Assembly: GCA_024672315.1 (NCBI GenBank)
Contig: GCA_024672315.1_4714.1
Direction: 5' to 3' (one strand)
Source of the DNA: a phage
DNA length: 64,000 nucleotides
The translations under genes and the position numbers were made by a program. Positions 8,628-46,238 of the stretch are shown piece after piece. The notes beneath the pieces are model-generated. The model searched no databases. It was not told the origin of the DNA and saw only the letters and a list, made by a program, of their open reading frames with translations. Each line of letters begins with the position of its first letter. Position 1 is the first letter of the stretch.

Positions 8628-8642
8628 AACAAAATAGCATGA

Positions 8643-8687
8643 GCATAACCCTCCTCCAACCCAACAGGGAAGGAGGAGGGAATATGC
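8643..8687. promoter_or_regulatory. conserved GC-rich intergenic stem-loop, family copy 2
   Basis: gcataa CCCTCCTCC aacccaacagggaa GGAGGAGGG aatatgc; between convergent genes 5634..8627 (+) and 8690..11476 (-). Confidence 0.8.
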
Positions 8688-8689
8688 TG

Positions 8690-11476
8690 TTATCTTACGT
8701 TATTGCTATTCTGCTGTTCGCTGAACCAACCGTACACCTTGAGATCGGTACCGTATTTCAATGCGATATACGCATTCAATGCAGCACAGAACAAAGACAC
8801 GAATGCCCATATCAGCGAAGGATCAACATCTTCCGTTACCACCGGGAGAGTATTATCCGGTTCCCACGATGGAGAACTGTCCATGAACGTCGTGTACCAT
8901 TCCCGCCGTTGTTCTTCAGTGGTAAAGTCGCTATGAGGTTCCAACGCTTCTTTTGCCAGACGTCGATATTCGAACACATACGTTGCGAAAGCCGATGAGT
9001 TACCAGATTCGCCTTCATAGTTCGGATCCACCGCACAACAGAGTTCTGTGGAATCTAACAAAGCAATCGCTTGTGTGATGCTGTCGGCAGTGCCTGCACC
9101 ATAGAGCTCGATAGACCGCGAAAGCTTTTCACAGAACGTATTTAACGCGGCAGGATTGGACACCTGAAGGTCAAGGCCTAATGTCCACGGATAGTTACTG
9201 AACACGCCCGTAAACCGCGGCAGGACACCCAACAGATGTTGTCCGATTACAGCACGGTTATAAACAGCCCGGTTATAGACTTGAAACGCAGCCTCCAAGG
9301 CTTGGTTATAATGACGACGAAGTTCGTCACGCGAGTTGCGGAATCTGTTTGCCGCAAGACTCGTGGCTGCGACGCTACAAACATCGTAATTGGTGGACGA
9401 GAGCACAGTTTCGTTAAGATCGAACGATTCCTGTTTCAACGATCCGCTAACCGCTGCTGCTTCGCTGTTTGCTTTATCGACAACTGTACTCAAAGCGTTG
9501 ATGTAACGCTTAGCCCGGACTTCCAGCCATTGTGCGATACCGAGAACATCCACAGCGGCTTTAGCAAGGTCACGTGCGTTCACGATTTCGTTCTTCAATG
9601 CCCCTAAACCTTTATTCTCAGGCGAAGAGGCTTGTTGACGAATCATGCTGTTCAACATGGTAAGCAGATTATCCAACTCATGTCCACTGACCTTGTTACG
9701 TGCATCGGTAACTGGTCCTTGCAGGAATTTACGACAACCATCGTTGTATCGAATCAGTTTGTCCACATCGATAGATTCGTTCGTGGATTCCTTGAACTGA
9801 TCCTTCAATTCTTCACGGTAGTCATGGATTTCACTTGCGAGATTATCGATAGTGATACCATCGTGTCCAAGAAGAACTTTATTGAAGTTACCTTTCTCGA
9901 ATGCAAGAGCAAGACCTTCACGAATCTTAGCGAGTTTATCCTGATCGAGTTCGCGACCGTTCGATAGCTCTTTCACTTCCGAGCTGATTAGTGCCGCAAC
10001 GTTACCCAGATTGTCGGTAACGCCTTTGAATGTTCCCGACCAGATCGTTCCTGCTTCAGCATATTTCGCAATGGTCTGAATACCGACGGTGTGCAGCGAC
10101 GCTAAACGTTTCTTCGTGCCTTCGGTAAGCAGAGCGTCTTTAGCTCGCGTAAGCTGGCTGTTATTCGCTTCCGCCTGCTGAATCGCCGCTTTCGCACTTC
10201 CATTACGCCAGCTCTTAACCAGCCAATCGACCAAACGTTTTAGGATGTTGACGGTGTATTCCATCGTCCGCCGTAACGTTTCCCACGCGCTTTCTGCGGT
10301 ATAGATGCCGTACCCTTCCTGCACGAGATCGGTACGTGTGTATCCGTCGGCCGCTTCGATTTCTTCTTGCGTTTTATCCCAAAGCTCTTCGCTACGAACA
10401 GCAGTAGCGGTTTCAGATACCGACATAACAAGCTCAGCAACAGCTTCAGCGTAAGTCAGTACGGTACGCACACATTGCACTAACATGCGCTGGTAAACGA
10501 TACGTGCGTTTTGCAGACGTGCGATAACCGCTAAATAACCGATGTTATCAAGATTTTCATCGGTTTGAGCAGATTCAACGCGTTCTAACAGTTGTTTAAC
10601 TAGCGCCGCTGTTTCTGGGTAATCGTTCACGACGTCACGCATGATTCGTGATGCGAAAACCGCAGTACCTAAAACGGTGAGAAGTGTTTTACCGTCCCAT
10701 TCTTTCGGTGCCGCTACCGATTCAGCAGGGATGAGATTTCCCGCTTGGTCGAAGTACGGCATAAGGACATTGATATCAGTCGACGGAACAGCAGTAATTG
10801 CGTTGTACTCTTCATCCACGCCATCGTTGCCAGACGGTTGTAATGCGAGCGCTTGTTCGAGGATTTTGCGGTCAACAGCGTAAAGCGCCGACAGAGCCTG
10901 TGTTACCGCAACCAGATCAACGATCGGCGACCAGAGCTGTGCGAGCTTACCTTCGTATTTCTGTACAGCGATAGCAAGGTCTTCTTTTACGTCTGGATGA
11001 TCGATCAAACCACCCAATGTTTCATGGATGGCAGAAAAACGTTCAGAATGCGCTTGAGTCAATGCGGTAAAATCGTCAACGTACGACGCATTTTCTTCAA
11101 GACGCGTAAGTTCCTGCTCCAGAAGATCTTTTACTTGCGTGGCGGATGCGTTTCTCAACTGTTCCCCGATAATCGCGATGGCTTTATCGACAACACGGCA
11201 GGCTTCATTGAAACCGGTCGTTGAAGGTAACTCGGTCCATAATGCCAGCGGCTTACCTTCCATTGCGTCAGGAAGGGAATATGACAGCATTGCTAGTTGT
11301 TGACGTGATACCTGTTTGTCACGATGTAATGTTTCTTTCAACGCCAGAAGCTCATCAAGACCCACGCTGCTAGGGATCGTGGGATGTGATACGGCGTTGA
11401 TATTTCCTGTCAATGACTCAAGAACCAATAAACCATTTTCAGCGGAAGATAACCCTGCTTTAAGGTATTTGTTCAT
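8690..11476 (-). CDS. hypothetical large alpha-helical protein (928 aa)
   Basis: Long ORF, helical/coiled-coil-like composition; convergent with 5634..8627; GGAG RBS sits directly 3' of a perfect 12-bp hairpin. Confidence 0.85.
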   Translation of the reverse strand: MNKYLKAGLSSAENGLLVLESLTGNINAVSHPTIPSSVGLDELLALKETLHRDKQVSRQQLAMLSYSLPDAMEGKPLALWTELPSTTGFNEACRVVDKAIAIIGEQLRNASATQVKDLLEQELTRLEENASYVDDFTALTQAHSERFSAIHETLGGLIDHPDVKEDLAIAVQKYEGKLAQLWSPIVDLVAVTQALSALYAVDRKILEQALALQPSGNDGVDEEYNAITAVPSTDINVLMPYFDQAGNLIPAESVAAPKEWDGKTLLTVLGTAVFASRIMRDVVNDYPETAALVKQLLERVESAQTDENLDNIGYLAVIARLQNARIVYQRMLVQCVRTVLTYAEAVAELVMSVSETATAVRSEELWDKTQEEIEAADGYTRTDLVQEGYGIYTAESAWETLRRTMEYTVNILKRLVDWLVKSWRNGSAKAAIQQAEANNSQLTRAKDALLTEGTKKRLASLHTVGIQTIAKYAEAGTIWSGTFKGVTDNLGNVAALISSEVKELSNGRELDQDKLAKIREGLALAFEKGNFNKVLLGHDGITIDNLASEIHDYREELKDQFKESTNESIDVDKLIRYNDGCRKFLQGPVTDARNKVSGHELDNLLTMLNSMIRQQASSPENKGLGALKNEIVNARDLAKAAVDVLGIAQWLEVRAKRYINALSTVVDKANSEAAAVSGSLKQESFDLNETVLSSTNYDVCSVAATSLAANRFRNSRDELRRHYNQALEAAFQVYNRAVYNRAVIGQHLLGVLPRFTGVFSNYPWTLGLDLQVSNPAALNTFCEKLSRSIELYGAGTADSITQAIALLDSTELCCAVDPNYEGESGNSSAFATYVFEYRRLAKEALEPHSDFTTEEQRREWYTTFMDSSPSWEPDNTLPVVTEDVDPSLIWAFVSLFCAALNAYIALKYGTDLKVYGWFSEQQNSNNVR

Positions 11477-33262: not shown

Positions 33263-35875
33263 TTAAGCGTCCGGCGTAAAATCAAAAGGAATGTCCGTAC
33301 GAATGATATCATAACGTTTTCCGAGGAAATAAAACTCTTCGGGAACCTGGCCTGGAATGATGCTATCACCGATGAACTGCGGATACGCCCAGATGTACTG
33401 AGTGAGTCCTTCGAACATATCCAGGTTATTTGCGTGGTTACCCATGATACGTTTCCAGAGTTCGCGTTTATACGGCGTTTTAACATCGAACCCATAAAGC
33501 GGTGCAAGATCTTCACCAGGAACAAATCCCAGGTAATAGTGGATCTGACTAACCGGGAAACCAAGCGTATCTCGCGGAATGGTGATCGCTTGCTCAGCCT
33601 TGGTGACATGCGTCTCAATAATCCAGTCATAGCACTCCGAATAGAACCGATCGAATTTCTCTGGATTATACCATGCTTTGGGAAGATTGAGTTTCTCCGT
33701 GAACGCATTCGACATGATCGTCGGTAAGAACGGAAGAATACCGGTTTTGATCTGCGTGTATTTCGATTTTACCCGGTTAACGAGATTCCAGCAACTGTAT
33801 CCTAATTGGTCGTTACAAAACTCAACGTAGAGATCGTAGTCACCGCCGGATAATGGGTTGTTGATGTCACCGATGTCTGCGGCATATTTGTTGGGATATC
33901 GGTTATTGAAAGCCAGTTTGGTTTGGTAATCGTAGATACACGGTTTGTTGTTCGCTGTATTGATCCACCACCAAGGTTCACCTACCTGCACACAAATGTC
34001 CTGGACATGAGGGTAGATGATATCAGCAAATGCGGTTAACACATCCCCTAACCACGCCATCGCCTGTTGGTTACACGGAGACAACAACCAAGACGGTGGC
34101 GTATATCCGGTTGCTGCGATGTTTCCTTCCCAATCCTGCTGCGCCCATTCGAACGGGCATGCGGTACTCATCAATTCGTAACTTAAACTGATAGTGACAG
34201 AGAAATGGTGTTTTGCAGCATATGCAGCGAAAGCTTCATGCCACGCGATACAGGGCGGATTTAATACATCCGTGGTGTTCACCAGTAACTTACCCGCACT
34301 TGGTGTCCAGACAGTATCGTAGAAATGCGACATGCCAACATAATGCACTAATTCATCCTGATATCCCGCATAAACCAGGTTCTCAAATACACGCTCCGGC
34401 GTGATGTTGTAATGGTCATCATAAGCGGTTATCGCACGAAGTTCGTGTGGCGTACAGTGGTGGCGATTAACCGTCATTTCCTGATACACCCCATCGATAG
34501 GAAGAATCTCGATGGTTAAGCCGAGGTCGATCGGTGTTTCCAGATAGGTCGTTTCAGTCGCATCTTCCTTATAATGTCGAGAACTCATGCTGAACATCAA
34601 CGACGTTACCGATTCGAGTTCGATAGGTTCGTCAGCATAGAACCCCGCCATTGCGTCGTTGAAATCGATCGTTACGATTGCGCTTCTACCGTCTTCAGAG
34701 ACATCTGTCGCATATCGGGTTAATGAGATATACTGACGGCTATCGTCTTTGTGTACAACGGTTAAAACCGGCGGGTGTTCGGTATCTGCAAAGTTACGCT
34801 GATCGCCAGTAAACGTGATCTTCGCTTTAAAGATCAAACCAAGCAACGACGTCATGGGATCATACGCAATACAGCCGTGATCCAGCGTATCCGTTGTCCG
34901 CCATTCTATCCCGACCAACCCGTTAGCGGTATGGCATCGCATATACGCATTAAGTACCATGTCTTCACTGACAACCGCGAAGTTCTCTGTTGACTGACCG
35001 TTGATAATCCAATACATCGGCTGCCAGAGGTTACGCGTACCTTTTGCGTAGCGGTAGGTTGGTGCGCCTTTAGGGTTGCCGTTATTGAGATGGAATACGG
35101 CAGTACCTTGATAATGGTCGTTCGTATTAATCGGAACACTGTAAGCATCACCGAGGTCCGTACGTTCCACCTTCGTGATTGTTGCGTTTTCAAATAACCT
35201 ACGTAGCGCGGGTAAACCGATATCTTCAGGCGCGTTTTCTCGACGAATCGCATCCGCGATGCGGTGGGCTAAGGCGGGGTAAATGACTTCACCCTGTTGT
35301 AGGTTTGCAAGACCTACAAAGCGATCGGGGCCGATACCAGCAATCAATAACTCGACACCACCCTTCGTTCTATCGTCGTTAAGATATTTCAGTCCGGTAA
35401 GGTCAAGATGCTGAATAAGCGACAACAGGTTGTAATTACGGTTCTCAACAGTTAGTACAAGATCGCCCGCCCAAACCAAACTTCCCTCATCCGCTGTTAC
35501 TTTAACGGATTGTCGGCCTGTTGTAGACGTTGTTGTCGTTTTATTTAATTGTCCTTGTAGGAAGTCGGTTGCGAGGTCAAAGGCAATACCGTAACGGTCA
35601 GCGACCGCTTGCATGATTTCACGTAACTGGGTATCTTCTTCAATGATAATCTTGACAGGTATTCCCAAGAACGCTTTAGCAAGGTCTCGTTTAACCAACG
35701 AGACGAATACGGATTTGTAGTATCGGCTTCCATCTTTCCCTTTAAAAAGAATGGAGGTTGTTTCGGGTGCCGATAGAACACGTGCAAATACAACATCGTC
35801 GGAAGTAAGAGAAAGTCCGTTTTTCTCGTTGACCAATCTTAGTATTTCATTTTGCGCGGTTTCATGTAACTTCAT
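33263..35875 (-). CDS. putative receptor-binding / tail-associated protein (870 aa) with shared N-terminal module
   Basis: N-terminal ~100 aa (..VFVSLVKRDLAKAFLGIPVKIIIEE..YGIAFDLATDF) is paralogous to the N-termini of 41064..41591 and 45408..46238; sits in the tail-fibre cluster. Confidence 0.6.
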   Translation of the reverse strand: MKLHETAQNEILRLVNEKNGLSLTSDDVVFARVLSAPETTSILFKGKDGSRYYKSVFVSLVKRDLAKAFLGIPVKIIIEEDTQLREIMQAVADRYGIAFDLATDFLQGQLNKTTTTSTTGRQSVKVTADEGSLVWAGDLVLTVENRNYNLLSLIQHLDLTGLKYLNDDRTKGGVELLIAGIGPDRFVGLANLQQGEVIYPALAHRIADAIRRENAPEDIGLPALRRLFENATITKVERTDLGDAYSVPINTNDHYQGTAVFHLNNGNPKGAPTYRYAKGTRNLWQPMYWIINGQSTENFAVVSEDMVLNAYMRCHTANGLVGIEWRTTDTLDHGCIAYDPMTSLLGLIFKAKITFTGDQRNFADTEHPPVLTVVHKDDSRQYISLTRYATDVSEDGRSAIVTIDFNDAMAGFYADEPIELESVTSLMFSMSSRHYKEDATETTYLETPIDLGLTIEILPIDGVYQEMTVNRHHCTPHELRAITAYDDHYNITPERVFENLVYAGYQDELVHYVGMSHFYDTVWTPSAGKLLVNTTDVLNPPCIAWHEAFAAYAAKHHFSVTISLSYELMSTACPFEWAQQDWEGNIAATGYTPPSWLLSPCNQQAMAWLGDVLTAFADIIYPHVQDICVQVGEPWWWINTANNKPCIYDYQTKLAFNNRYPNKYAADIGDINNPLSGGDYDLYVEFCNDQLGYSCWNLVNRVKSKYTQIKTGILPFLPTIMSNAFTEKLNLPKAWYNPEKFDRFYSECYDWIIETHVTKAEQAITIPRDTLGFPVSQIHYYLGFVPGEDLAPLYGFDVKTPYKRELWKRIMGNHANNLDMFEGLTQYIWAYPQFIGDSIIPGQVPEEFYFLGKRYDIIRTDIPFDFTPDA

Positions 35876-35897
35876 TAAAAACCTCAGCCCTTTAGAA

Positions 35898-36539
35898 TTA
35901 GATGTACTGCTTACCGCCCACGAAGGAAGTTAACCAGTTCCCGCTGACGAGTTGTGATACCCAGCCTGGAACGGCTCTACCATTCTGGCTCATGATGTTA
36001 CCACACCAACCAGGGAATCCGGGACGGATGTAATAGAAAGTTAAATTGTAGAGATGACAGTTCCATACCGCAACGTTATGTTTACCAGAAACCGCTTTAA
36101 AGACAAACGCGACAGGTAAAGGAGACGATAACAATTCGGTCACAGGGACGGCTGACCAGTTCGCATTCGCGTTCCACGGCTGCCAGGTATGACTACGCGA
36201 GTCGCAATATACGTTACCGTTGTTACCGCGCCCACCCGCATGCCACCACAGCGACGGACTCATGTTCTTAAGTGAGGTAAATTGTTGCGGTGGAATATTA
36301 GGAATAATAACAGGGTTGGTACCTTGTCCATGTTTCTTTTCTTTTGCGTTCACATACCCGCTTATCGATTCGAGGTATTTGGTACCAGGATAATTGTTCT
36401 GGACTTGTGTCGCAATATCACGAACGTCGAACGTCCAGCAGATCATGGTGTTATAGTAAGCGTCGGTGTTATCGTGCCATGAGTTACCATCTTGTAAACG
36501 TGCGCCGCTATTCGGTGTTTTATCTGTACTTATAGCCAT
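35898..36539 (-). CDS. hypothetical protein
   Basis: 213-aa ORF, Trp/Asn/Gly-rich; AGGA RBS. Confidence 0.7.
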   Translation of the reverse strand: MAISTDKTPNSGARLQDGNSWHDNTDAYYNTMICWTFDVRDIATQVQNNYPGTKYLESISGYVNAKEKKHGQGTNPVIIPNIPPQQFTSLKNMSPSLWWHAGGRGNNGNVYCDSRSHTWQPWNANANWSAVPVTELLSSPLPVAFVFKAVSGKHNVAVWNCHLYNLTFYYIRPGFPGWCGNIMSQNGRAVPGWVSQLVSGNWLTSFVGGKQYI

Positions 36540-36671
36540 GGTCTTGTCCTATACGTTGGTGGTTGAGGTGACGGATATCGGATGCGTGCTGGACGTGAAC
36601 CCTATAGTTCACGCTATCGCCATTTTCTACCTCGTTTCTATTCTCAAAAAGGAAATTTCATACGATGACGC

Positions 36672-36712
36672 CATAGCAGCTCCTCCTTCCCTGACGGGTT
36701 GGAGGAGCATAC
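36672..36712. promoter_or_regulatory. conserved GC-rich intergenic stem-loop, family copy 4
   Basis: catagca GCTCCTCC ttccctgacgggtt GGAGGAGC atac; loop identical to the reverse complement of copy 1's loop; between lipoprotein gene and 35898..36539. Confidence 0.8.
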
Positions 36713-36716
36713 TTAA

Positions 36717-37223
36717 TTACTTACTGATAACCTCAACGGAGTTGGGATCAGCGATCAATGCACGGTCGGTAGAACAATTGAAGAAGACCATCCCAACACC
36801 ATCGCCGTTCGAGTTCAGGGTTGAACTTGCGTAAGACAATGTTGGTTTGTTCATGCGGTAGAAGCGTTCGCTGGTTGCGGTATTGAACCCCAGGTCAACG
36901 TAGTCTTTCACCGTGGTATACAACTGGGTGGACTCGAAAACGGTTACCGGAGAGTCAACGGTAAACTGACTGCCTTCATCCACAACCAGAACTTTATCGT
37001 TCCAGATTTCAGTGGTTGAGAACTTCGGTTTCCAATGTTCGAATTCCTGGGTTGCGCCCCAGCAAGAATACACAGCGAGATTGCTGTTCTTCTCAACAGG
37101 TTTCAAACCCACCAGTTGCGTCAGGTCTTTATCCAGGTTCGGTAAACCTTCCAGCGTAGCACACCCACCCAGAGAAAGCACCATCAACATACCAAGAACG
37201 ATCGCGCAAAGTTTCTTCATCAT
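36717..37223 (-). CDS. putative lipoprotein
   Basis: 168 aa; N-terminus MMKKLCAIVLGMLMVLSLGGCATLEG = basic n-region, hydrophobic h-region and lipobox-like LGGC; AAGGAA RBS; immediately downstream of the tail-fibre gene. Confidence 0.7.
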   Translation of the reverse strand: MMKKLCAIVLGMLMVLSLGGCATLEGLPNLDKDLTQLVGLKPVEKNSNLAVYSCWGATQEFEHWKPKFSTTEIWNDKVLVVDEGSQFTVDSPVTVFESTQLYTTVKDYVDLGFNTATSERFYRMNKPTLSYASSTLNSNGDGVGMVFFNCSTDRALIADPNSVEVISK

Positions 37224-37277
37224 CGGATTTCCTTATGTGTTAACGGAAGTGATTTCCATAAGAATAATCGTCCGATG

Positions 37278-40200
37278 TTAATATCCCTGGTTTGTAGCTC
37301 CTGCTGTACCTGCGAACTTCAGCCATTGCCCTTCCGGCGACAATGCGCTCCGATAATGATACACTACAATCATATTTGTCAAACCGCTATAATCTGCTTT
37401 ATGTTGCGTAGTAATACGTATCGTATAATCCAACCCGTTAGGGAAGTTGAATACTTCAATGATCGTACCGGCGAGCTGGAGAGCACCGAACCCGGTGATT
37501 GTTCCTGTGCTTCCGGCGTTCATGCCCATCGCATCGCCGAATCCAATCCAGTAGCGTTTCCGAAACGCACCTTCGCTTTTCAGATAGTTGATGAAGTCAC
37601 TAAACGACATGTTCATACCACCAGATGAAAGCGTGGATGTTTTAATCGCCATGTTAGGGATATCGCTACTGGATGCTTTATATCCTAATTTCGTATCGAT
37701 TTCTGACTTCGTATACGTAGACAGATCCGCCGCAGTTAACGTGATATTCGCCGAACCATCGAACGCTTTCCCGTTGATCGTACGCGCAGTCCGCAACTTC
37801 GTTGCCGTTGCTGCGTTTCCTGAAGTATTCTGATTACCAGCGGTGTTGACACCTGGTAGGTTAATATTAGCGCTGCCGTCAAAAGACACTCCGCCTATTG
37901 TCCGGGCCGTCTTTAACTTGGTCGCTGTCGCCGCATTTCCTGTGGTATCTTGGTTACCTGTGGTATTAACACCAGGTAAGTTGATGTTTGCTGTACCGTT
38001 GAATGATACCCCACCTATCGTTCTTGCCGTTTGAAGCCTTGTCGCTGAAGCGGCATTACCCGTCGTGTTTTGGTTACCTGTTGCATTCACACCCGGGATA
38101 CTATCCTTAGATGTGTAAATCTGTGCCCATTCCGACCATTTCGCATCGGTTGTATCGCGACGTGAACGTAAATAAGCTGGAGCGTGCGCGCCCGAGGTAC
38201 CCGACCATCCAATGAGGATTTCACCTTCACCAACCGATGAAGCACCTTTAAGATGAACAATGTTACCGTAGGCTGTAGGGTATCCGTTATTGTACACTTC
38301 ATACATCTGAATACCCGTATTGCTGCCCTGGGTCGCATTAGCTAAAGCGGTGACCCGTCCCTTGGAAGCGAGCACGTTAATGCTAAAGCTAATATCAGTT
38401 GTACCGTCAAAGGCGACCCCATTAATCCTCCGCGCCGTTTGGAGTTTCGTGGCAGTAGCCGCATTACCAGAGGTACTCTGATTACCCGCTTTGTTCACAC
38501 CCGGTAAATCAATGTTGGCGGTCCCATCAAAGGACACACCCCCTATGGTTCTCGCCGTCCGAAGTTTTGTTGCTGAACCAGCGTTTCCGGAAGTGCTTTG
38601 ATTCCCCGACGCGTTGACACCCGGTAGGTTAATGCTCGCAGAACCATCAAAAGAAACTCCGCCGATCGTGATCGGTGTTTGCAGCTTCGTGGCTGTCGCA
38701 GCATTACCCGTCGTATTCTGATTGCCAACCGCATTAACGCCTGGTAATGCGATATCGGCCGTACCATCGAACGCAACACCACCGATTTTACGGGCGGTCT
38801 GTAGCTTGGTCGCTGTCGCCGCGTTGCCGCTGGTATTTTGCGTGCCCGCTTCATTTACGCCTGGTAAATCAATGTTCGCAGTACCGTCAAAAGAAACACC
38901 CCCGATGGTTCTCGCGGTCTGCAACTTCGTTGCACTTCCTGCGTTTCCGCTGGTGCTTTGATTTCCCGCTGCATTAACACCTGGTAGACTGATGCTGGCT
39001 GAACCATCGAAACTCACACCACCGATCGTAACAGCGGTTTTCAATTTCGTGGCGGTTGCTGCGTTACCGGTTGTATTTTGGTTGCCTGTCGCATTCACGC
39101 CAGGTAATGCAATATCCGCTGTTCCGTCAAAGGCAACGCCACCGATTTTACGTGCAGTTTGTAGCTTGGTTGCACTAGCAGCGTTACCGCTGGTATTCTG
39201 GGTGCCCGCTTTGTTAACACCGGGGAGATCGATGTTAGCAGAACCATCGAAGCTGACGCCACCTATCGTTCTTGCGGTAGCGAGTTTAGCTGCTGTGGCT
39301 GCATTATTACCCACTTTCAGCCAATCATCCCATGGACCATCCTGGCCGTTCCATGATGCCGTTAAACTACGTACGTAAATATTGCCGGTACGTACAGTGT
39401 AACGTTGCGTTCCACCGAATTGCCCGGTTGGGAGCACTTCAATGTAACCTGCGGCGTTTGCTTCAGGGAAATTGTGGGCGATGTCCGCGTTCGTTGTTAC
39501 TGGTTTAGACCAAATACCCACAGACGCTTCGACTGGGCCGAAGGTATTCAGATTTGCGTCTATCGCCATAGCGCCATTAAATTTCAGGTATGTCTCTGAC
39601 GATAACCCGATCGTTTTAGCAAACGCAGCTTTATCTACGATATCACTACCGTTATTCCCTGCTTGCAACGCCGTCTTAGCTGCCTTTATGGTTTCGGTCA
39701 ATCCAAGATACTGTAAGATCGCATCAACGCTTCCTTTGTTTAGCAGATTCAGACCTGTTGACGTTACGTTAGTTAGTCCGATTTGGTTCCGTCCAGTAAA
39801 ATAAGGGAGTTTATTCGCTTCTGTTGTTAGGTTAGACCACGCAGTCAACAACGCGTTCAAAGGCTGTTTACCCGCCAACGCATTGGTTACTGTCGTTGCG
39901 AAATTAGGATCGTTCCCTAAAGCTTGAGCCAGCTCATTAAGCGTATTTAGCGCTTCTGGAGACGAGTCGATCAGCGATGCGATAGCGCGCATCACAAATT
40001 CCGTGTTGGCAATCTGTCGACTGCTATCGTTCTCTGCAGCCGTAGGCGCTGCCGGGATACCGGTGAACACGGGGCTATTAAGATCTGCCTTGAGCGCGAT
40101 GAGACGTTTAAGTGCGTCGACATCGACTTTCAGGTTTTCCCACCCGATGAGAGAACCACCACTGCTGGCATGATAACGGTTATACCAGAAGTCACCGTTA

Positions 40201-41057
40201 ATGCCTAAAAAGAATATTCCCTTCTCTTCGTTTTGTGGGCCAGAACTGTTCCGTGACGAGCTGATGTAATTGATTTCAATAAGACCGGTAAACGTCACTC
40301 CTGGAATTATTTTATTGTCTCCAGCTGACTGTGATACCTGGTAAATCCCCGGGGTTGCGGCTTTAACCCATGTTAAGAATTCTGTTACTCCAGCGGTGCC
40401 GCTAAAATTCTTAACGTCGGTAAGTATTGCCCCATAACCGAACATACCGGGTAGAGCCACTCGTCCGCTGGTACGATCACGAATATCTGTTGCAACAACA
40501 GGCAATTGTTTACGAACGGCATTAACCGCTTTAGGTGTAGCCGATTTTGTCTCGTCGTCGCTATCGGTTGCATTACTTAGAATAGTTAAACCGCGCGTAG
40601 CAGTCGTTGCATCAGGAAGAAATGCGTTATCCAACACCTTAAGCTGTACTGCACTCGTATTACTAACAACGACATGCACTTGACAGTTAAGAACGCTGGT
40701 TGCGCCTTCGGCAGGCGTAGGCTTATATCTTTCTGGTGCACTGCAGACGGCAATCAGAACACCTTGGTCATCATACAGACCGATCTCACGTACCCAGAAC
40801 CCACCTTGACCAGCAGGAATAATACCCTCAACGATAATCCTGGTTGTGCTGTCACCATCCGCATGGATATTAGAAACTTCCCCACGATAAACTTCGTGAA
40901 CAAGCGCTGTTTGGCTGGCGGTCGGAGTTGGGATCGAGCCGTTACCATCACCAACGGCAAAGTGTGTGATTTTTAGTTTCTCACCGTCGGGAAGTAACGC
41001 GGCGGTGATACGTTCTGCTCCTTTATCGGTAACTACCGTTATATATGCTGTACTCAT
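37278..41057 (-). CDS. tail fibre protein
   Basis: 1259 aa; N-terminus (..FAVGDGNGSIP..ALVHEVYRG..GGFWVREIGLYDDQGVLIAV..YKPTPAEG..ATPKAVNAV) matches the conserved N-terminal domain of P2 gpH-type tail fibres (from memory); about ten tandem 40-aa repeats of type ATKLQTARTIGGVSFDGSANIDLPGVN..GNQNTSGNA. Confidence 0.9.
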   Translation of the reverse strand: MSTAYITVVTDKGAERITAALLPDGEKLKITHFAVGDGNGSIPTPTASQTALVHEVYRGEVSNIHADGDSTTRIIVEGIIPAGQGGFWVREIGLYDDQGVLIAVCSAPERYKPTPAEGATSVLNCQVHVVVSNTSAVQLKVLDNAFLPDATTATRGLTILSNATDSDDETKSATPKAVNAVRKQLPVVATDIRDRTSGRVALPGMFGYGAILTDVKNFSGTAGVTEFLTWVKAATPGIYQVSQSAGDNKIIPGVTFTGLIEINYISSSRNSSGPQNEEKGIFFLGINGDFWYNRYHASSGGSLIGWENLKVDVDALKRLIALKADLNSPVFTGIPAAPTAAENDSSRQIANTEFVMRAIASLIDSSPEALNTLNELAQALGNDPNFATTVTNALAGKQPLNALLTAWSNLTTEANKLPYFTGRNQIGLTNVTSTGLNLLNKGSVDAILQYLGLTETIKAAKTALQAGNNGSDIVDKAAFAKTIGLSSETYLKFNGAMAIDANLNTFGPVEASVGIWSKPVTTNADIAHNFPEANAAGYIEVLPTGQFGGTQRYTVRTGNIYVRSLTASWNGQDGPWDDWLKVGNNAATAAKLATARTIGGVSFDGSANIDLPGVNKAGTQNTSGNAASATKLQTARKIGGVAFDGTADIALPGVNATGNQNTTGNAATATKLKTAVTIGGVSFDGSASISLPGVNAAGNQSTSGNAGSATKLQTARTIGGVSFDGTANIDLPGVNEAGTQNTSGNAATATKLQTARKIGGVAFDGTADIALPGVNAVGNQNTTGNAATATKLQTPITIGGVSFDGSASINLPGVNASGNQSTSGNAGSATKLRTARTIGGVSFDGTANIDLPGVNKAGNQSTSGNAATATKLQTARRINGVAFDGTTDISFSINVLASKGRVTALANATQGSNTGIQMYEVYNNGYPTAYGNIVHLKGASSVGEGEILIGWSGTSGAHAPAYLRSRRDTTDAKWSEWAQIYTSKDSIPGVNATGNQNTTGNAASATRLQTARTIGGVSFNGTANINLPGVNTTGNQDTTGNAATATKLKTARTIGGVSFDGSANINLPGVNTAGNQNTSGNAATATKLRTARTINGKAFDGSANITLTAADLSTYTKSEIDTKLGYKASSSDIPNMAIKTSTLSSGGMNMSFSDFINYLKSEGAFRKRYWIGFGDAMGMNAGSTGTITGFGALQLAGTIIEVFNFPNGLDYTIRITTQHKADYSGLTNMIVVYHYRSALSPEGQWLKFAGTAGATNQGY
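37740..39300 (-). repeat. in-frame tandem repeats (~120 bp / 40 aa, about 10 copies in two blocks) inside the tail-fibre gene
   Basis: Repeating peptide ATKLQTARTIGGVSFDGSANIDLPGVNxxGNQNTSGNA; DNA periodicity visible (same motif recurs 120 nt apart, e.g. near 38404, 38524, 38644, 38764, 38884); blocks of ~7.5 and ~2.5 copies separated by a ~285-bp non-repeat insert (~38100..38380). Confidence 0.85.
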
Positions 41058-41063
41058 GTTGTT

Positions 41064-41591
41064 TTATCCTGGATAAATAGTGATGATATCACCAATGACG
41101 GTTGTGGCACCGGCGTAAAGATGAGCCGGAGATACATCGTGTTGGTTTGTCACAGTAAGATCCAATCGACCACGCCAAACCATGGAGGTATTCGCGATGG
41201 GGATAGAAATCTTTTTGGATATATCGTCACGAAAATCAATAACAGTGGCAAGGGTAACTGCATCAAAATCAACGTCGGGATCAAAGACGAACCCGTATTG
41301 ATCTGAAATCGCCCGAATAATCGCATGTATAGTTGTTGTCTCAACGGACTCTAAAACGATTTTTACCGGTATTCCTAAAAATGCCTTCGCGATATCGCGT
41401 CGAGCGTAAACGATAAAACTTTCACCGCACCACTTTGTTCCTTCATTTGCTGTGACGATCACTTTTGCCCTGTTAGCACCAGAACTCCCATCCAAGGTTA
41501 ATGTAAGATCGGAGCTGCTGAACACGCTACCGTTACGTTGGTTTATCAACGTAATCAGTTCGTCTTTCCATGGCGGGTAAAGTGAACGCAT
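41064..41591 (-). CDS. hypothetical protein with the shared N-terminal module (short paralog)
   Basis: 175 aa; ..FIVYARRDIAKAFLGIPVKIVLE..YGFVFDPDVDFD aligns with the N-terminus of 33263..35875. Confidence 0.7.
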   Translation of the reverse strand: MRSLYPPWKDELITLINQRNGSVFSSSDLTLTLDGSSGANRAKVIVTANEGTKWCGESFIVYARRDIAKAFLGIPVKIVLESVETTTIHAIIRAISDQYGFVFDPDVDFDAVTLATVIDFRDDISKKISIPIANTSMVWRGRLDLTVTNQHDVSPAHLYAGATTVIGDIITIYPG

Positions 41592-41697
41592 AAGCGCAAC
41601 CCTCCTCCAACAGTCAAATTAAATTGTAAAACTCCTCGAGATCAGAGTGCGATTCGAGGTAAACGTAAACAGTCCAGACGACCGCATAAAATTCCGC

Positions 41698-41755
41698 GCA
41701 TATTGCCCCTCTATCTCGCTTTGTCGAGATAGAGGGGAGGATAATACGATTATGC
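41698..41755. promoter_or_regulatory. GC-rich intergenic stem-loop (related family)
   Basis: gcatattg CCCCTCTATCTCG ctttgt CGAGATAGAGGGG aggataatacgattatgc; perfect 13-bp stem; a second perfect hairpin (ATGGGGCGG taa CCGCCCCAT, ~41774..41794) sits directly after the stop of 41798..45394. Confidence 0.8.
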
Positions 41756-41797
41756 TGCCGCACTCCAAAGTTCATGGGGCGGTAACCGCCCCATCGG

Positions 41798-44700
41798 TTA
41801 AATGGTTGGTTTTACATCACGTAATAAGGCAATATAATAGCCTAATCCTCGGAGGATCTCCCCACTCCAGAAACCAAAATACATTCCGTCTCTGCCGAGA
41901 TTAGCGCTATCTGGTGCAGGACTCCACCCACCATTCATTACGTCGTCAACAGTGTAATGGTTGATGTAGTTCTCAACGATTTCGTTATAAGCATTAACCG
42001 CAACAGAATAGCCTTTATCGTTGGGATGTCCGTACAACATTGCTAACGACGCACCCGCCAACCATAATCCCGCCATGTGACCAGTAAAGTCATTAGGGAT
42101 AAAAGCAGGGGGTTTATCCATCGGAAAATCCGTAGGGGATTGATAAGCGTTTTCCTGTTGATACGTAAACAAGAAATCGATCCAATGACTGATGTAAGTG
42201 GTTAATTTCTCAGGGACAGCCAAACCATGATCAAGCAGTCCAGCATAAAGCCTCACCGCTGAGAAGAAAGCCCTCGGCTGATAACCGGACCATGCCGTCT
42301 GATCGCCGAAGTGGTACATCGTAAAATCGTTAACTTTTGATCCGCTTGGCGCATCCCAACGATCCCACACGTACGCACTTGCCCCTGGCCCTAAAACCCC
42401 GAATTTCTGATAATACCACTGTTGTGAGTCATACCAGAAATTCACAACGTTCTGAATCATGAGGTCACGTCGTTCAGTCGGTACTTCCATATCCAGGAAG
42501 ACCCATGGATGTTGGTAGCCGGGATAAGGCTGACCACGCCAACTGTCGAACGTCGGTGCGTTAGGGATATAGTTGTTCGAGAACGGAATAATACCAGGAG
42601 TATAAGGCAGTGGGTCAAGACGTTGGTTGACAATCGTGCAATCGCCAACACGTAATGTTCCCTCTGCCTCAAAGGTTGCTTTTAACGTAAACAACATGGT
42701 ATATCCGTCATCCGTGGTGTAAGTTGACGGTGGATTGTTGATGGCGTAAAGCTTAAATACCCCTTCAGCGATATCGCTGTCGTCAGGCAAGAACAGAATT
42801 TCAGTTGAGCCATCGCCCCACACAGGTGCAGAAGGTTTAGGGTCAGTATCAGCGTGGCCCGGTTGATACCCTGAAAGCGTCCATCCGTTCACCGAAAGCG
42901 TCAACGTATTTCTTGCCGTGGTGGCCGGTAGCATATACCACCATCGCCAACCATTTGCATCTTCTACACGAACGTTGTAGTCAATCGACGCGAAATAACT
43001 GACCTGTCTTACGATCTGTTTTGCTGTTGGATTGAATTCAAATTGCCCGCCTGCTGCAGTAAGCTGCGCTTTTAGGAACAACCCATCCCAGGAATCTTCC
43101 ACCGCTTCGCTGAATTCTGTTGTGATGGCGACATCATCTTTCCAGCCGACTTTATCAGCCGATATCAACACAGAACCTGTAACAACATCACCGGTTGGTG
43201 TTGAAGCTTCATCAACCGCATCGGCAGGAATCAACGAGCCTATTTTGAAATCCCATTCTTTCGGTTCAGCGCTGGAAGGTAGTACCAGTTTGTACGTTTT
43301 GGCGTTCGCTTCGGTTTTGTCCAAAGAAAGCGATAATGAGATCTCAACCGGAATTGCAACACCTGCTGTATCTTTACCTCCGCAGGTTACACGAAGAATT
43401 GAATCACGATTGACGCGGAACGGAATGGCCTGCTGCTCAAGGTAAATTTGTGCTGAAGATGCTTGAATCACGATCCAGCCATCGGTATCACGCGTGATTG
43501 TAAACGGTGCTTTCGATGGGTATGTATACGTGTAAGCGATACCGTCGGTGTCGTAACGATCGGTTCCTTTTACCTGACGGAAGAACTTATCATTGGCGTC
43601 GATACGGGTATATTCTTCAATCGTAAACAACGATGCCTTGTACGCTTTCTGATAACGCTCCTGCTGCGTTAAACGGTATAAGGTGTAGGCTGCTTCACAA
43701 AACCACTGTTCAGCGTCTGACGCGTTTCCCATGTAGTCTCTGGTGACCGGCACCTGGATCGGTCGGTTATGCTGACATTCGTTCGTTTTGATAAGGTATC
43801 CGCCATATTCAACAGGAACACGGGGTGCCCATGCAACCAAGTAAGAACCGTTGACGGATTTATCTTTGAGTACGATAGTACCTACTTCATCGTCAGTACA
43901 CGCTTCAAGATCGTCTCCGTCAGCACTTACGTAACGTTTTGTGCGTAACGCAACTTTCTCGATAGGGAACACCGTACCCTTTGTATCCCAGTCAATTGTC
44001 CCATCATCATTGGTTTTGAACACATCCGCGTTCAAATTCTGCCAGCCGAGTTTACCCTCATAGACCTGAACAACAAGATCCATGTATTCCCCGAACGTTG
44101 GCGCACCGTGTGTTATTTTTCCGATACCGTTGGTGAATGTAACCGCTGTGTCATGGAAACCGCCATGTGTTGGGTAATCGTCTTTTGCAAGAGGATAATG
44201 GGCCAACACAGGTTGTTTACCATTAACAATCCAGTTAGCGATCCAGCGTGCTGGTGTATCCGGTGGTTCAAGGCCTGCATAGAACGCATTTATATACGCA
44301 TCGAACGATGCCTCCGCTAATGTGAGATAATGCGCTTTAAGCTTGGTATCATCCGTTGTATGACTGAATATACCCGCACCCAGAATTAACAACGACTGTC
44401 CTTCTGTTGTTGCGTCACCGTCCGGTTGTGCTTCTTGTCGTGTTGCTGCAATGAAATGACGGTTGTTTACCATGACTCCGCTTTCATTTAACACGTAATG
44501 ATCGGTTTCTGGATCGGTAAACGTTCCTGTGTTTCGGGTTAAGAATCTTGCATGACCATAACCAACGAAATTAACCGGCGACGCCGTAAGCACCCATTTA
44601 CCGATAAGTTGAGCGACGTCATTATAACGCTCCGATGCGGTGATTTGTTTCACGTACCAATCTTTACGGTTAAATGTCCAGAGCAGGAAGTAATAGGTTG

Positions 44701-45407: not shown

Positions 45408-46238
45408 TTAATCGTAACTAAAATAAAGTTTGCTGCTGACGCCGCTATCGGAATGAGGTTTTAACACCAGAACAGAGCTTCCGAACGACGGAAGTATTGG
45501 AACATTTAAATCGTTTGCGTCGGCAACTTTTCCATTATAAACGACACTGGCTGTTGTGATGAGTTCCCAAGCCGAGGCATAACTCATTGAAATCAGCGAT
45601 GAGGCTAAACGGAATGCGTTGTATCCTTCGGGAGTATCTCCAACCGACATCGAACGTATCGCATCTTGCGGCGGTAAATTTAGCTTGATGCCGTATGTAC
45701 TGAATGTGTGGAAATCCCCTTGTTTACTATCTTCTGGATAATACGAGGTTAGTGGTTCTCGTACCGTAAACAGTTCGCTAATATCGGCACTTACATCTTT
45801 TCGTGCGAGGAATTGAAACGTACCGTACCACGATGCTGACGCGTCAGAAAGAACGGGAACAGATATGGTTTTCTCGCCGCTTTCAAATTTAACCTGTGAC
45901 GCTAACGCTGAAGAATCAAAGATCGTTAAATCGATCTTCAACCCATACTTCTTAAACAGCTGCGTTAAGCAGTCTGCTGTCGTCGTCTTATCAGCAACGA
46001 CAATAAAAGGTTGGTGTTTGATAAAGAGCTTATTAATATCGCGACGTTGAAGATAAACCTGTACGGGGTCTTCGACGTAGTAAACCGATTGTGGTGTGGG
46101 GGCTATAGAAAGGCGTAACCGACCTGATGCACCATACCAGGCTGGCGTTAACGTAATGTCTGACAGAGACAGCGGATGCTGGAGATAAGCGTTTATTTTA
46201 GATAACGCTTCTTCCTGCCACGATGCTTCAGGATACAT
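45408..46238 (-). CDS. hypothetical protein with the shared N-terminal module
   Basis: 276 aa; ..VQVYLQRRDINKLFIKHQPFIVV..YGLKIDLTIFD resembles the N-terminal module of 33263..35875 and 41064..41591. Confidence 0.7.
   Translation of the reverse strand: MYPEASWQEEALSKINAYLQHPLSLSDITLTPAWYGASGRLRLSIAPTPQSVYYVEDPVQVYLQRRDINKLFIKHQPFIVVADKTTTADCLTQLFKKYGLKIDLTIFDSSALASQVKFESGEKTISVPVLSDASASWYGTFQFLARKDVSADISELFTVREPLTSYYPEDSKQGDFHTFSTYGIKLNLPPQDAIRSMSVGDTPEGYNAFRLASSLISMSYASAWELITTASVVYNGKVADANDLNVPILPSFGSSVLVLKPHSDSGVSSKLYFSYD

Follow-up and report, generated by a model that had tools for sequence, protein, structure and literature searches.

What kind of protein is encoded by the long open reading frame (ORF) at positions 37278..41057 of a 64,000-nt stretch of phage DNA (hereafter, the window), and how has its array of repeats changed during evolution? 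A preliminary description of the window had delimited this ORF, a minus-strand reading frame of 1259 aa, correctly and had called it a tail fiber. We find that its product is the ortholog of gp090 of jumbo phage Goslar, which is a virion protein; Goslar gp90 has been found by mass spectrometry in purified virions. The window is ~94% identical to Goslar, and the flanks of the fiber gene are 94-96% identical to it, with gene order kept. The locus has the features of a Goslarvirus gp090 ortholog, namely the DUF7941-175, fiber, and 168-aa genes together with a near-identical proximal half. The tail-fiber assignment is borne out by this orthology and by matches to Pfam families, P2 gpH, and many PHROG tail-fiber families, while a search of NCBIfam with the fiber returned nothing useful. 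The same protein (100%) is deposited at NCBI as HCJ8148410.1 ("phage tail protein"). We estimate a probability of roughly 85% that the gene encodes the long tail fiber of an E. coli-infecting, Goslar-like jumbo myovirus (Chimalliviridae), put together from interchangeable modules (Table 1).

Table 1. Coordinates of the fiber gene, its modules, and its neighbors in the window.
Feature	Position	Strand	Remarks
DUF7941 gene, 175 aa	41064..41591	-	ends 6 nt upstream of fiber start codon
Tail-fiber CDS, complete	37278..41057	-	1259 aa, ATG start; stop codon 37278..37280
Tail-collar-fiber domain PF12571 (Phage_tail_fib), aa 1-141	40635..41057	-	P2 gpH-type baseplate-attachment end
One Phage_fiber_2 repeat PF03406, aa 151-182	40512..40607	-	34.6 bits vs cutoff 22
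K1, non-repeat, aa ~190-315	40113..40490	-	insertion relative to P2 gpH
gpH-like proximal shaft, aa 316-465	39663..40112	-	includes SSPEALNTLNELAQALGNDPNFATTV; pairs with P2 gpH 240-393
K2, non-repeat, aa 491-588	39294..39587	-	directly ahead of array; ends W..W
Repeat block 1, 8 units of 40 aa (120 nt)	38382..39293	-	last unit stops after 24 aa
K3, 92-aa insert, aa 893-984	38106..38381	-	between repeat blocks 1 and 2
Repeat block 2, 20-aa half-unit, two full units, 26-aa terminal unit	37728..38105	-	
Fiber tip, linker + terminal knob K4, aa 1111-1259	37281..37727	-	unrelated to Goslar glycine-rich tip
Spacer, 54 nt	37224..37277	-	fiber stop to next gene; Goslar has Caudo_TAP gene gp089 here
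Downstream gene, 168 aa, Goslar gp088 homolog	36717..37223	-	lipoprotein-like signal peptide; context

The order of the 175-aa DUF7941 gene and the fiber gene is kept in all related contigs. On the other side, the 168-aa gene accompanies every tip type in the related contigs compared, and it is the distal border of an exchangeable cassette. Promoter-like sites around the fiber gene do not exceed the shuffled expectation. Terminator-like sites are about twice as frequent as in shuffled sequence (11 versus 5.4 ± 2.0 expected), but the gaps on either side of the gene contain none. The antisense ORFs at 37588..39378 had been dismissed as repeat artifacts, and rightly so: differences from Goslar are distributed 18/17/85 over positions 1/2/3 of the fiber codons. 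We also rejected these ORFs as genes in their own right, as the 128-aa ORF at 38992..39378 has an in-frame stop in Goslar.

The fiber begins like P2 gpH. With Pfam membership defined as a score over the gathering cutoff (23 for PF12571, 22 for PF03406), both families pass; PF12571 scores 142.1 bits (E 1.8e-41) over profile positions 1-140 of 150. The likeness to gpH had been placed in the first ~190 aa. It extends considerably further, since BLASTP aligns aa 1-465 with gpH 1-393 (E 5e-71, 37% identity, with a ~125-aa insertion), residues 1-140 of the two proteins being counterparts. Beyond gpH residue 393, BLASTP finds no significant similarity. The first 190 aa are 97.4% identical to Goslar at the nucleotide level. 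At the position of K1, some related jumbo-phage fibers have two Phage_fiber_2-type repeats instead. Within the proximal shaft, aa 355-414 match the tail-collar fiber gp4 (9d93). We suspect a knob fold for K2; a phmmer search of K2 against the PDB gave only two weak matches, probably due to chance.

The distal shaft is dominated by a repeat of 40 aa, with the consensus ATKLxTARTIGGVSFDGSANIxLPGVNxxGNQNTSGNAA. The "~10" tandem copies of the preliminary description were a fair count: we find 11 unit starts, all in register and arranged as 8 + 3, or ~10.7 unit equivalents. Its two blocks (~38380..39300 and ~37740..38100) and the ~95-aa insert between them also lie where they had been placed (Table 1). 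Units start at aa 589, 629, 669, 709, 749, 789, 829, and 869 in block 1 and at aa 1005, 1045, and 1085 in block 2, with the half-unit ahead of the latter three. Block 1 is arranged A-B-C-A-B-C-A-B', a higher-order repeat of 360 nt. The suggested Tandem Repeats Finder (TRF) check recovers both periods (120, score 375; 360, score 884). Autocorrelation in block 1 reaches 0.65, 0.68, 0.74, and 0.63 at lags of 120, 240, 360, and 480, well above the chance baseline of 0.254 ± 0.052 over all lags. Protein columns across units have a mean identity of 86%. The repeat is widespread, matching 6204 cluster representatives at E ≤ 1e-3, with at most 15 matched stretches per protein. In a profile search of PDB sequences, no solved structure contained it; the one weak match was the C-terminus of phage L Dec (E 0.36).

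It had been proposed that these repeats are recombination-prone and can change fiber length. Comparison supports the second part of this proposal. We surveyed 29 fibers encoded on contigs of Goslar-like phages and related jumbo phages and counted 2 to 11 units; close relatives differ in layout, with 8+3 in the window, 7+4 in Goslar, and 5+3 in the metagenomic contig L007. The Goslar array corresponds to that of the window without unit 4, and the window array to that of L007 plus one 360-nt block. Such differences would fit a contingency locus, at which frequent slippage or unequal recombination alters fiber length within populations over short time scales, as would a period divisible by 3, which keeps any gain or loss of units in frame. 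The units themselves make this reading very improbable and qualify the recombination-prone part of the claim. Full-length units share only 60-79% DNA identity, and the two truncated end units 41-54% (random 120-mers from the same gene, 25 ± 4%); exact matches between units reach 18 nt at most. Efficient RecA-type exchange usually needs roughly 20-30 bp, and 18 nt falls short of this. Moreover, the 360-nt copies have diverged by ~24% (TRF), which exceeds the 6-8% between genomes, and their duplication is therefore old. Differences between units and between genomes are mostly synonymous (in block 2, 61 of the 70 that separate the window from contig L008), pointing to long-term retention. We reject a slippage hot-spot on the DNA divergence between units. 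Judging from this divergence, change in fiber length appears to be a slow evolutionary exchange between diverged units.

The insert between the two blocks, K3, is a globular beta domain, a knob of the type present in the fibers of T4 (gp34) and R-pyocins. It has a fold-level match to the solved knob domains of these fibers, at 11-18% identity to the C-terminal region of T4 gp34 (4uxe/4uxg/5nxf/5nxh) and the R2 pyocin fiber PA0620 (6cl6, 6cu2). A phmmer search of K3 against the PDB gave no match. The idea that K1-K4 are four homologous knobs finds no support in their sequences, as their profiles show no significant mutual similarity (hhalign; best pair K2-K3, probability 47%). The knob nature of K3 had gone unremarked in the preliminary description, as had the A-B-C order of the 360-nt repeat, the tip swap, and the absence of a chaperone gene.

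The array is also where the ancestry of the gene changes. Positions 38554..43000 are 92.8% identical to Goslar, and 35001..38918 are 94.4% identical to L007, such that the Goslar-like and L007-like best matches overlap within repeat block 1. In block 2, nucleotide identity to Goslar drops to 74-78%, compared with 94% to L007, and past aa 1110 identity to Goslar falls to background level. The tip, at 9% amino acid identity to Goslar, is likewise at background. These alignments show a mosaic gene, with a proximal part that is Goslar-like and a distal part as in L007. Among the 29 fibers, there are four tip types on an otherwise conserved fiber. Gly_rich_2 tips (Goslar, L012) are followed by a Caudo_TAP gene, while the 168-aa gene comes directly after both the Peptidase_S74 tip (L010) and the knob-only tips (window, L007, L008, L009). 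Tip type thus covaries with the chaperone gene.

The knob that ends the window fiber has relatives well outside jumbo phages. K4 matches Mu S 222-307 (8ju3; phmmer domain E 1.2e-5), the tip is 35-36% identical to P1/P7 Sv over 90% of its length, and 92 records of E. coli phage-plasmid size have tip homologs at 66-68% identity. The fold ascribed to the tip derives from sequence similarity only, because the AF2 model of aa 1085-1259 (11-sequence alignment) was unusable (pLDDT 40). We infer that K4 is the receptor-binding end. Counting against this role, K4-type knobs in Mu, P1, and Cyrano are also internal, with further domains after them. A different reading is that the knob-only tip is a truncated fiber without a true receptor-binding domain, either defective or an adaptor for a separate adhesin. 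The docking of gp38 on gp37 in T2-type phages is a precedent for this. In its favor, further C-terminal domains follow the homologous knob in Mu S, in the S proteins of P1/P7, and in Goslar-like fibers of the Peptidase_S74 type, and the window fiber stops 21 aa past the region aligned with Mu S. We nevertheless consider this reading quite unlikely. The C-terminal end of the window fiber (…GQWLKFAGT.GAT..) is common to three independent jumbo-phage contigs and many phage-plasmid fibers (60-68% identity). Differences in the tip fall at third codon positions in 18 of 31 cases and in 26 of 39, with 8 of 149 residues changed; these mostly synonymous substitutions are unlike those of a degenerate remnant and show a tip under purifying selection. 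Furthermore, the cassette has no tip-specific extra gene, the 168-aa gene being next to every tip type.

No homolog of Caudo_TAP, Goslar gp089, or P2 gpG adjoins the fiber gene or occurs anywhere in the 64-kb window of this ~236-kb genome. The knob-only tip probably folds independently of a chaperone, although the missing adjacent gene does not prove such independence.

Taken together, we propose a fiber of four modules, which is probably a homotrimer with the baseplate as its likely docking partner. The P2 gpH-type N-terminal domain would anchor the fiber on the baseplate, and the gpH-like proximal shaft with its one extra inserted segment would form the second module. The distal shaft would consist of eleven 40-aa repeats of beta structure, 8 + 3 around the gp34/pyocin-type knob, and the terminal knob would be the fourth module and presumed receptor-binding end. 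Specificity and length would evolve by homologous exchange, with cassette arms provided by the array of repeats and by the 168-aa gene downstream, both of them conserved. Each cassette would carry distal repeats, a tip, and a chaperone gene if that tip type needs one: "knob-only" without Caudo_TAP in the window, and "glycine-rich tip + Caudo_TAP" in Goslar. The fiber gene is in this respect ordinary and neatly modular, a standard case of tail-fiber mosaicism of a known kind.

The fiber gene sits among DUF7941 genes bearing enzymatic or binding domains. The cryoEM study of Goslar, in which the fibers were not resolved, proposed DUF7941 filaments and collar filaments as host-recognition elements, so the window fiber may not be the primary host determinant. 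If the fiber were accessory, with DUF7941 and other nearby tail proteins mainly setting host range, the tip swap would be nearly silent. This is unlikely, given that at least four tip types occur on the conserved fiber, each with a matching chaperone arrangement; diversifying selection acting on a receptor-binding end usually leaves such variety.

Goslar serves as a model for nucleus-forming jumbo phages, and the window phage provides a natural experiment: a proximal fiber as in Goslar, joined to a different distal cassette, with no chaperone gene. The pair could help to locate the receptor-binding module and to identify the tips for which a Caudo_TAP chaperone is required. The 29-fiber survey could, in turn, supply rules for host-range engineering, comprising cassette joints, chaperone-linked tips, and tolerated repeat numbers. 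More tentatively, the 40-aa array might be a universal in-frame splice site that moves distal cassettes between very different phages, with the knob-only, chaperone-free tip common to nucleus-forming jumbo myoviruses and SSU5-type phage-plasmid siphoviruses. Selection may also fix total shaft length, which is 11 units in both the window phage and Goslar despite their different layouts.

Goslar gp090 (YP_009820775, "tail fiber protein") and the window fiber are alike in locus, gene order, and N-terminal domain, with 94.4% DNA identity over window aa 1-708. They share the K1/K2 segments, the K3 knob, and the 40-aa repeat with its total of 11 unit starts. Gp090 is longer (1324 aa versus 1259 aa), has 7+4 units and a Gly_rich_2 (PF21722) tip, and is followed by the Caudo_TAP gene gp089. 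The window fiber has 8+3 units and a knob, with neither PF21722 nor gp089.

P2 gpH (NP_046775) also has the PF12571 N-terminal domain, the Phage_fiber_2 repeat (two copies versus one in the window fiber), and the proximal shaft. It is, however, only 669 aa long and lacks the 40-aa array, K1, and K3. It has its own C-terminal receptor-binding part, including one match to PF21446 (Gp34_trimer), a family absent from the window fiber at E ≤ 1 in the Pfam search, and the chaperone gene G lies downstream. The window fiber is therefore of gpH type in its N-terminal domain and proximal shaft, and it has neither a gpH-like C-terminal region nor an adjacent Caudo_TAP chaperone gene (gpG).

The knobs of T4 gp34 and R2 pyocin PA0620 are surrounded by shaft repeats that differ from those of the window fiber. 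Mu S/S' (8ju3) and the variable segments of P1/P7 S have short shaft motifs in common with it, but the knob in Mu and P1 is internal, with a distal receptor-binding domain after it. A chaperone (U) serves it there, as does an invertible segment; the window knob is terminal, with neither chaperone nor invertible segment.

The side tail fiber of Cyrano / pLF82, an SSU5-type E. coli phage-plasmid (CYRAN_21, 1341 aa), belongs to a siphovirus, not to a jumbo myovirus. Unlike the window fiber, it has a lambda Stf / P1 S-type N-terminus, and its repeat units number only 5 and are scattered. Nevertheless, it is built from the same 40-aa repeat and knob, its tip is 67% identical, and its gene is followed by a holin gene, again with no chaperone gene. 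Its terminal unit, linker, and knob finish at the same residue as the window fiber.

In the phage collection, the gene and its flanks match only Escherichia phage vB_EcoM_Goslar (237 kb, Goslarvirus), with flanks at 94-96% identity and in the same gene order. An identical fibre protein is deposited in NCBI (HCJ8148410.1, "TPA: phage tail protein [Escherichia coli]"), encoded on a contig of 236,002 bp. The window therefore belongs to a Goslar-like jumbo phage genome of complete size that is stored under an E. coli assembly and not as a phage record. The Goslar fibre, gp90, was found in purified virions by mass spectrometry, and the fibres were unresolved in cryoEM (bioRxiv 10.64898/2026.04.21.720040). 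DUF7941 proteins encoded near the fibre gene are counterparts of the "DUF7941 fibre cloud" proposed for Goslar in the same study; the 870-aa member additionally carries NCTSP_N and a non-contractile-tail-sheath TIM-barrel domain.

Features of the fibre gene and its neighbourhood
Feature	Position (nt)	Strand	Position (aa)	Remarks
Fibre ORF	37278..41057	-		1259-aa protein
PF12571 tail-collar-fibre N-terminal domain			1-141	Pfam E 1.8e-41
Phage_fiber_2 repeat			151-182	Pfam; single copy
Block 1, 40-aa units	38382..39293		starts 589, 629, 669, 709, 749, 789, 829, 869
Insert separating the blocks (K3)			893-984	92 aa
Block 2, 40-aa units	37728..38105		starts 1005, 1045, 1085	20-aa half-unit at its beginning
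168-aa ORF directly 3' of fibre	36717..37223	-		starts MMKKLCAIVLGMLMVLSLGGC; signal peptide with lipobox-like LGGC
DUF7941 gene cluster around fibre	41064..41591, 33263..35875, 45408..46238	all -

A preliminary description had assigned the N-terminal ~190 aa to the P2 gpH type and named Pfam profiles as a check; two profiles match there. PHROG contributes 55 matching families at E ≤ 0.01, the majority of the 25 listed being annotated as tail fibre or tail protein. By direct BLASTP, aa 1-465 align with residues 1-393 of P2 gpH (NC_001895; 37% identity, E 5e-71). Thus, the likeness to gpH is genuine and extends well beyond the length first claimed. Within this alignment, a segment of ~125 aa (K1, aa ~190-315) is without gpH counterpart. 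At aa 440-500 (nt ~39558..39740), the window and Goslar share a segment resembling Mu S and P2 gpH and including LGLTETIKAAKTALQAGNNGSDIVDKAAFAKTIG that is 32 aa longer than the different segment found in the 20 closest fibres (P0017-P0036), which marks a further internal mosaic boundary.

The two in-frame blocks of ~120-bp repeats, described earlier with an insert of ~95 aa, are borne out. Spacing inside each block is exactly 40 aa for every unit. Tandem Repeats Finder (TRF) recovered periods of 120 (score 375) and 360 (score 884, 76% matches), and block 1 autocorrelation was 0.74, 0.68, 0.65, and 0.63 at lags of 360, 240, 120, and 480, respectively (all-lag 0.254 ± 0.052). Full-length units share 60-79% DNA identity (random 120-mers from the gene, 25 ± 4%) and a mean protein column identity of 86%. 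The array is additionally a higher-order repeat three units long, with unit types in block 1 ordered A-B-C-A-B-C-A-B', the last being shortened. No Pfam family covers aa 589-1110, and the repeat was absent from solved structures in a PDB search. A profile built from nine full units, searched among 1.84 billion proteins, retrieved 6204 cluster representatives with E ≤ 1e-3, of which 690 reach E ≤ 1e-30. Matched stretches reach 15 per protein, placing this fibre, with about ten matched copies, near the upper end of the range. The 40-aa repeat is common yet uncurated.

For the K3 insert, an AF2 model (aa 889-988, 26 homologues) reached pLDDT 81.9, and its top 12 PDB hits in Foldseek were T4 gp34 C-terminal structures and the R2 pyocin fibre; the modelled fold identifies the insert as a predicted knob domain. 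The tip model reached only pLDDT 40, too low to assign a fold, and profile-profile comparisons among K1, K2 (aa 491-588), K3, and the tip (K4, aa 1111-1259) found no significant mutual similarity.

Antisense ORFs across the repeats had been regarded as artefacts, and we agree. Read in the fibre frame, the 120 differences from Goslar in aa 1-708 fall 18/17/85 at codon positions 1/2/3, and a stop in Goslar interrupts the 128-aa antisense ORF 38992..39378. These ORFs are thus by-products of sequence composition.

We find that the gene is a recombinant carrying a chaperone-less tip cassette. Positions 38554..43000 are 92.8% identical to Goslar, while 35001..38918, spanning K3, block 2, tip, spacer, and downstream genes, align ungapped at 94.4% to a related contig, L007 (Logan SRR9988193). 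The two best matches overlap inside block 1, which places the change from Goslar-like to L007-like sequence among the repeats. Before block 2, the gene is 88-97% identical to Goslar; the figure drops to 74-78% across block 2 and to background beyond aa 1110. Homology restarts at 37260, immediately past the position of gp089, the Goslar Caudo_TAP chaperone gene. Third codon positions hold 18 of 31 tip differences from L007 and 26 of 39 from another related contig, L008, with 8 of 149 residues changed; the tip is under purifying selection. Between block 2 and its L008 counterpart, 70 of 378 nt differ, 61 at third positions, and only 5 of 126 residues change. Synonymous divergence is near saturation, and the protein sequence of the repeat is strongly conserved.

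The copy-number comparison proposed earlier took in Goslar, the window, and about 27 fibres of Goslar-like or related jumbo-phage contigs found by searching with the proximal 590 aa. Units per fibre vary from 2 to 11, which gives comparative support to the claim that such repeats can change fibre length. A second alignment to L007 is offset by exactly 360 nt; the window therefore has one A-B-C triple more (8 versus 5 units). Its fourth unit is missing in Goslar. Fast slippage does not hold up: the longest exact match between any two units is 18 bases, and the 360-nt copies are ~24% diverged (TRF), more than the compared genomes are from each other.

Only the window, Goslar, P0041, and P0049 combine the K3 knob with a second block. 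Tips are of four types: Gly_rich_2 (Goslar and others), knob plus Peptidase_S74, Collar with His-rich repeats, and knob-only (window, P0041, and P0049). The presence of a chaperone gene follows tip type. A Caudo_TAP gene comes after the Gly_rich_2 tip in Goslar and L012, while the 168-aa gene comes directly next, with no chaperone gene, after the S74 tip (L010) and the knob-only tips (window, L007, L008, and L009); the Collar-type contig stops at the fibre gene. Searches of the 64-kb window with Goslar gp089 and the P2 chaperone gpG (tblastn) found no match. The 168-aa gene is kept after the fibre or its chaperone gene in Goslar (gp088) and every related contig reaching past the fibre. Its only match is phrog_9559, of unknown function; as a putative lipoprotein encoded next to a fibre gene, the product is reminiscent of lipoproteins of the receptor-blocking or exclusion kind, for example T5 Llp.

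Could the knob-only tip be a truncation artefact? Its C-terminal end is common to all the homologues named below, which argues against this. Similarity extends to Mu S residues 222-307, to P1/P7 Sv segments (35-36% identity), and, at 66-68%, to fibre ends of E. coli plasmids sized about 105-115 kb, almost all of them classed as non-mobilizable. The 60-80% identity band holds 92 records, including phage-plasmid Cyrano/pLF82. The Cyrano fibre (1341 aa) shares repeat and knob blocks with the window fibre and ends at the same residue; a holin gene, and no chaperone gene, lies 3' of it. A phage-plasmid-like contig (L003; ENA ERZ27238616 k111_30655) carries at 7863..8726 a 5'-truncated half K3 knob, one unit, and a knob-only tip. 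This copy, possibly a remnant or silent cassette, adjoins two ParB genes, and its fibre homology begins abruptly mid-knob.

The first reading of the fibre holds overall, refined by the knob insert, the three-unit higher-order repeat, and the recombinant tip cassette. Most likely, the fibre works like those of the P2 and Mu types: the N-terminal domain would dock the fibre trimer onto the baseplate, as described for Mu gp49 (PMC11915804), the shaft would consist of repeats and knobs, and contact with the host surface would be made by the terminal knob. Homologous exchange would alter length and specificity. Since its arms would be the repeat array and the conserved downstream gene, the distal cassette and any chaperone gene would travel jointly. 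This fibre is thus a further case of the well-known mosaic tail fibres of enterobacterial phages.
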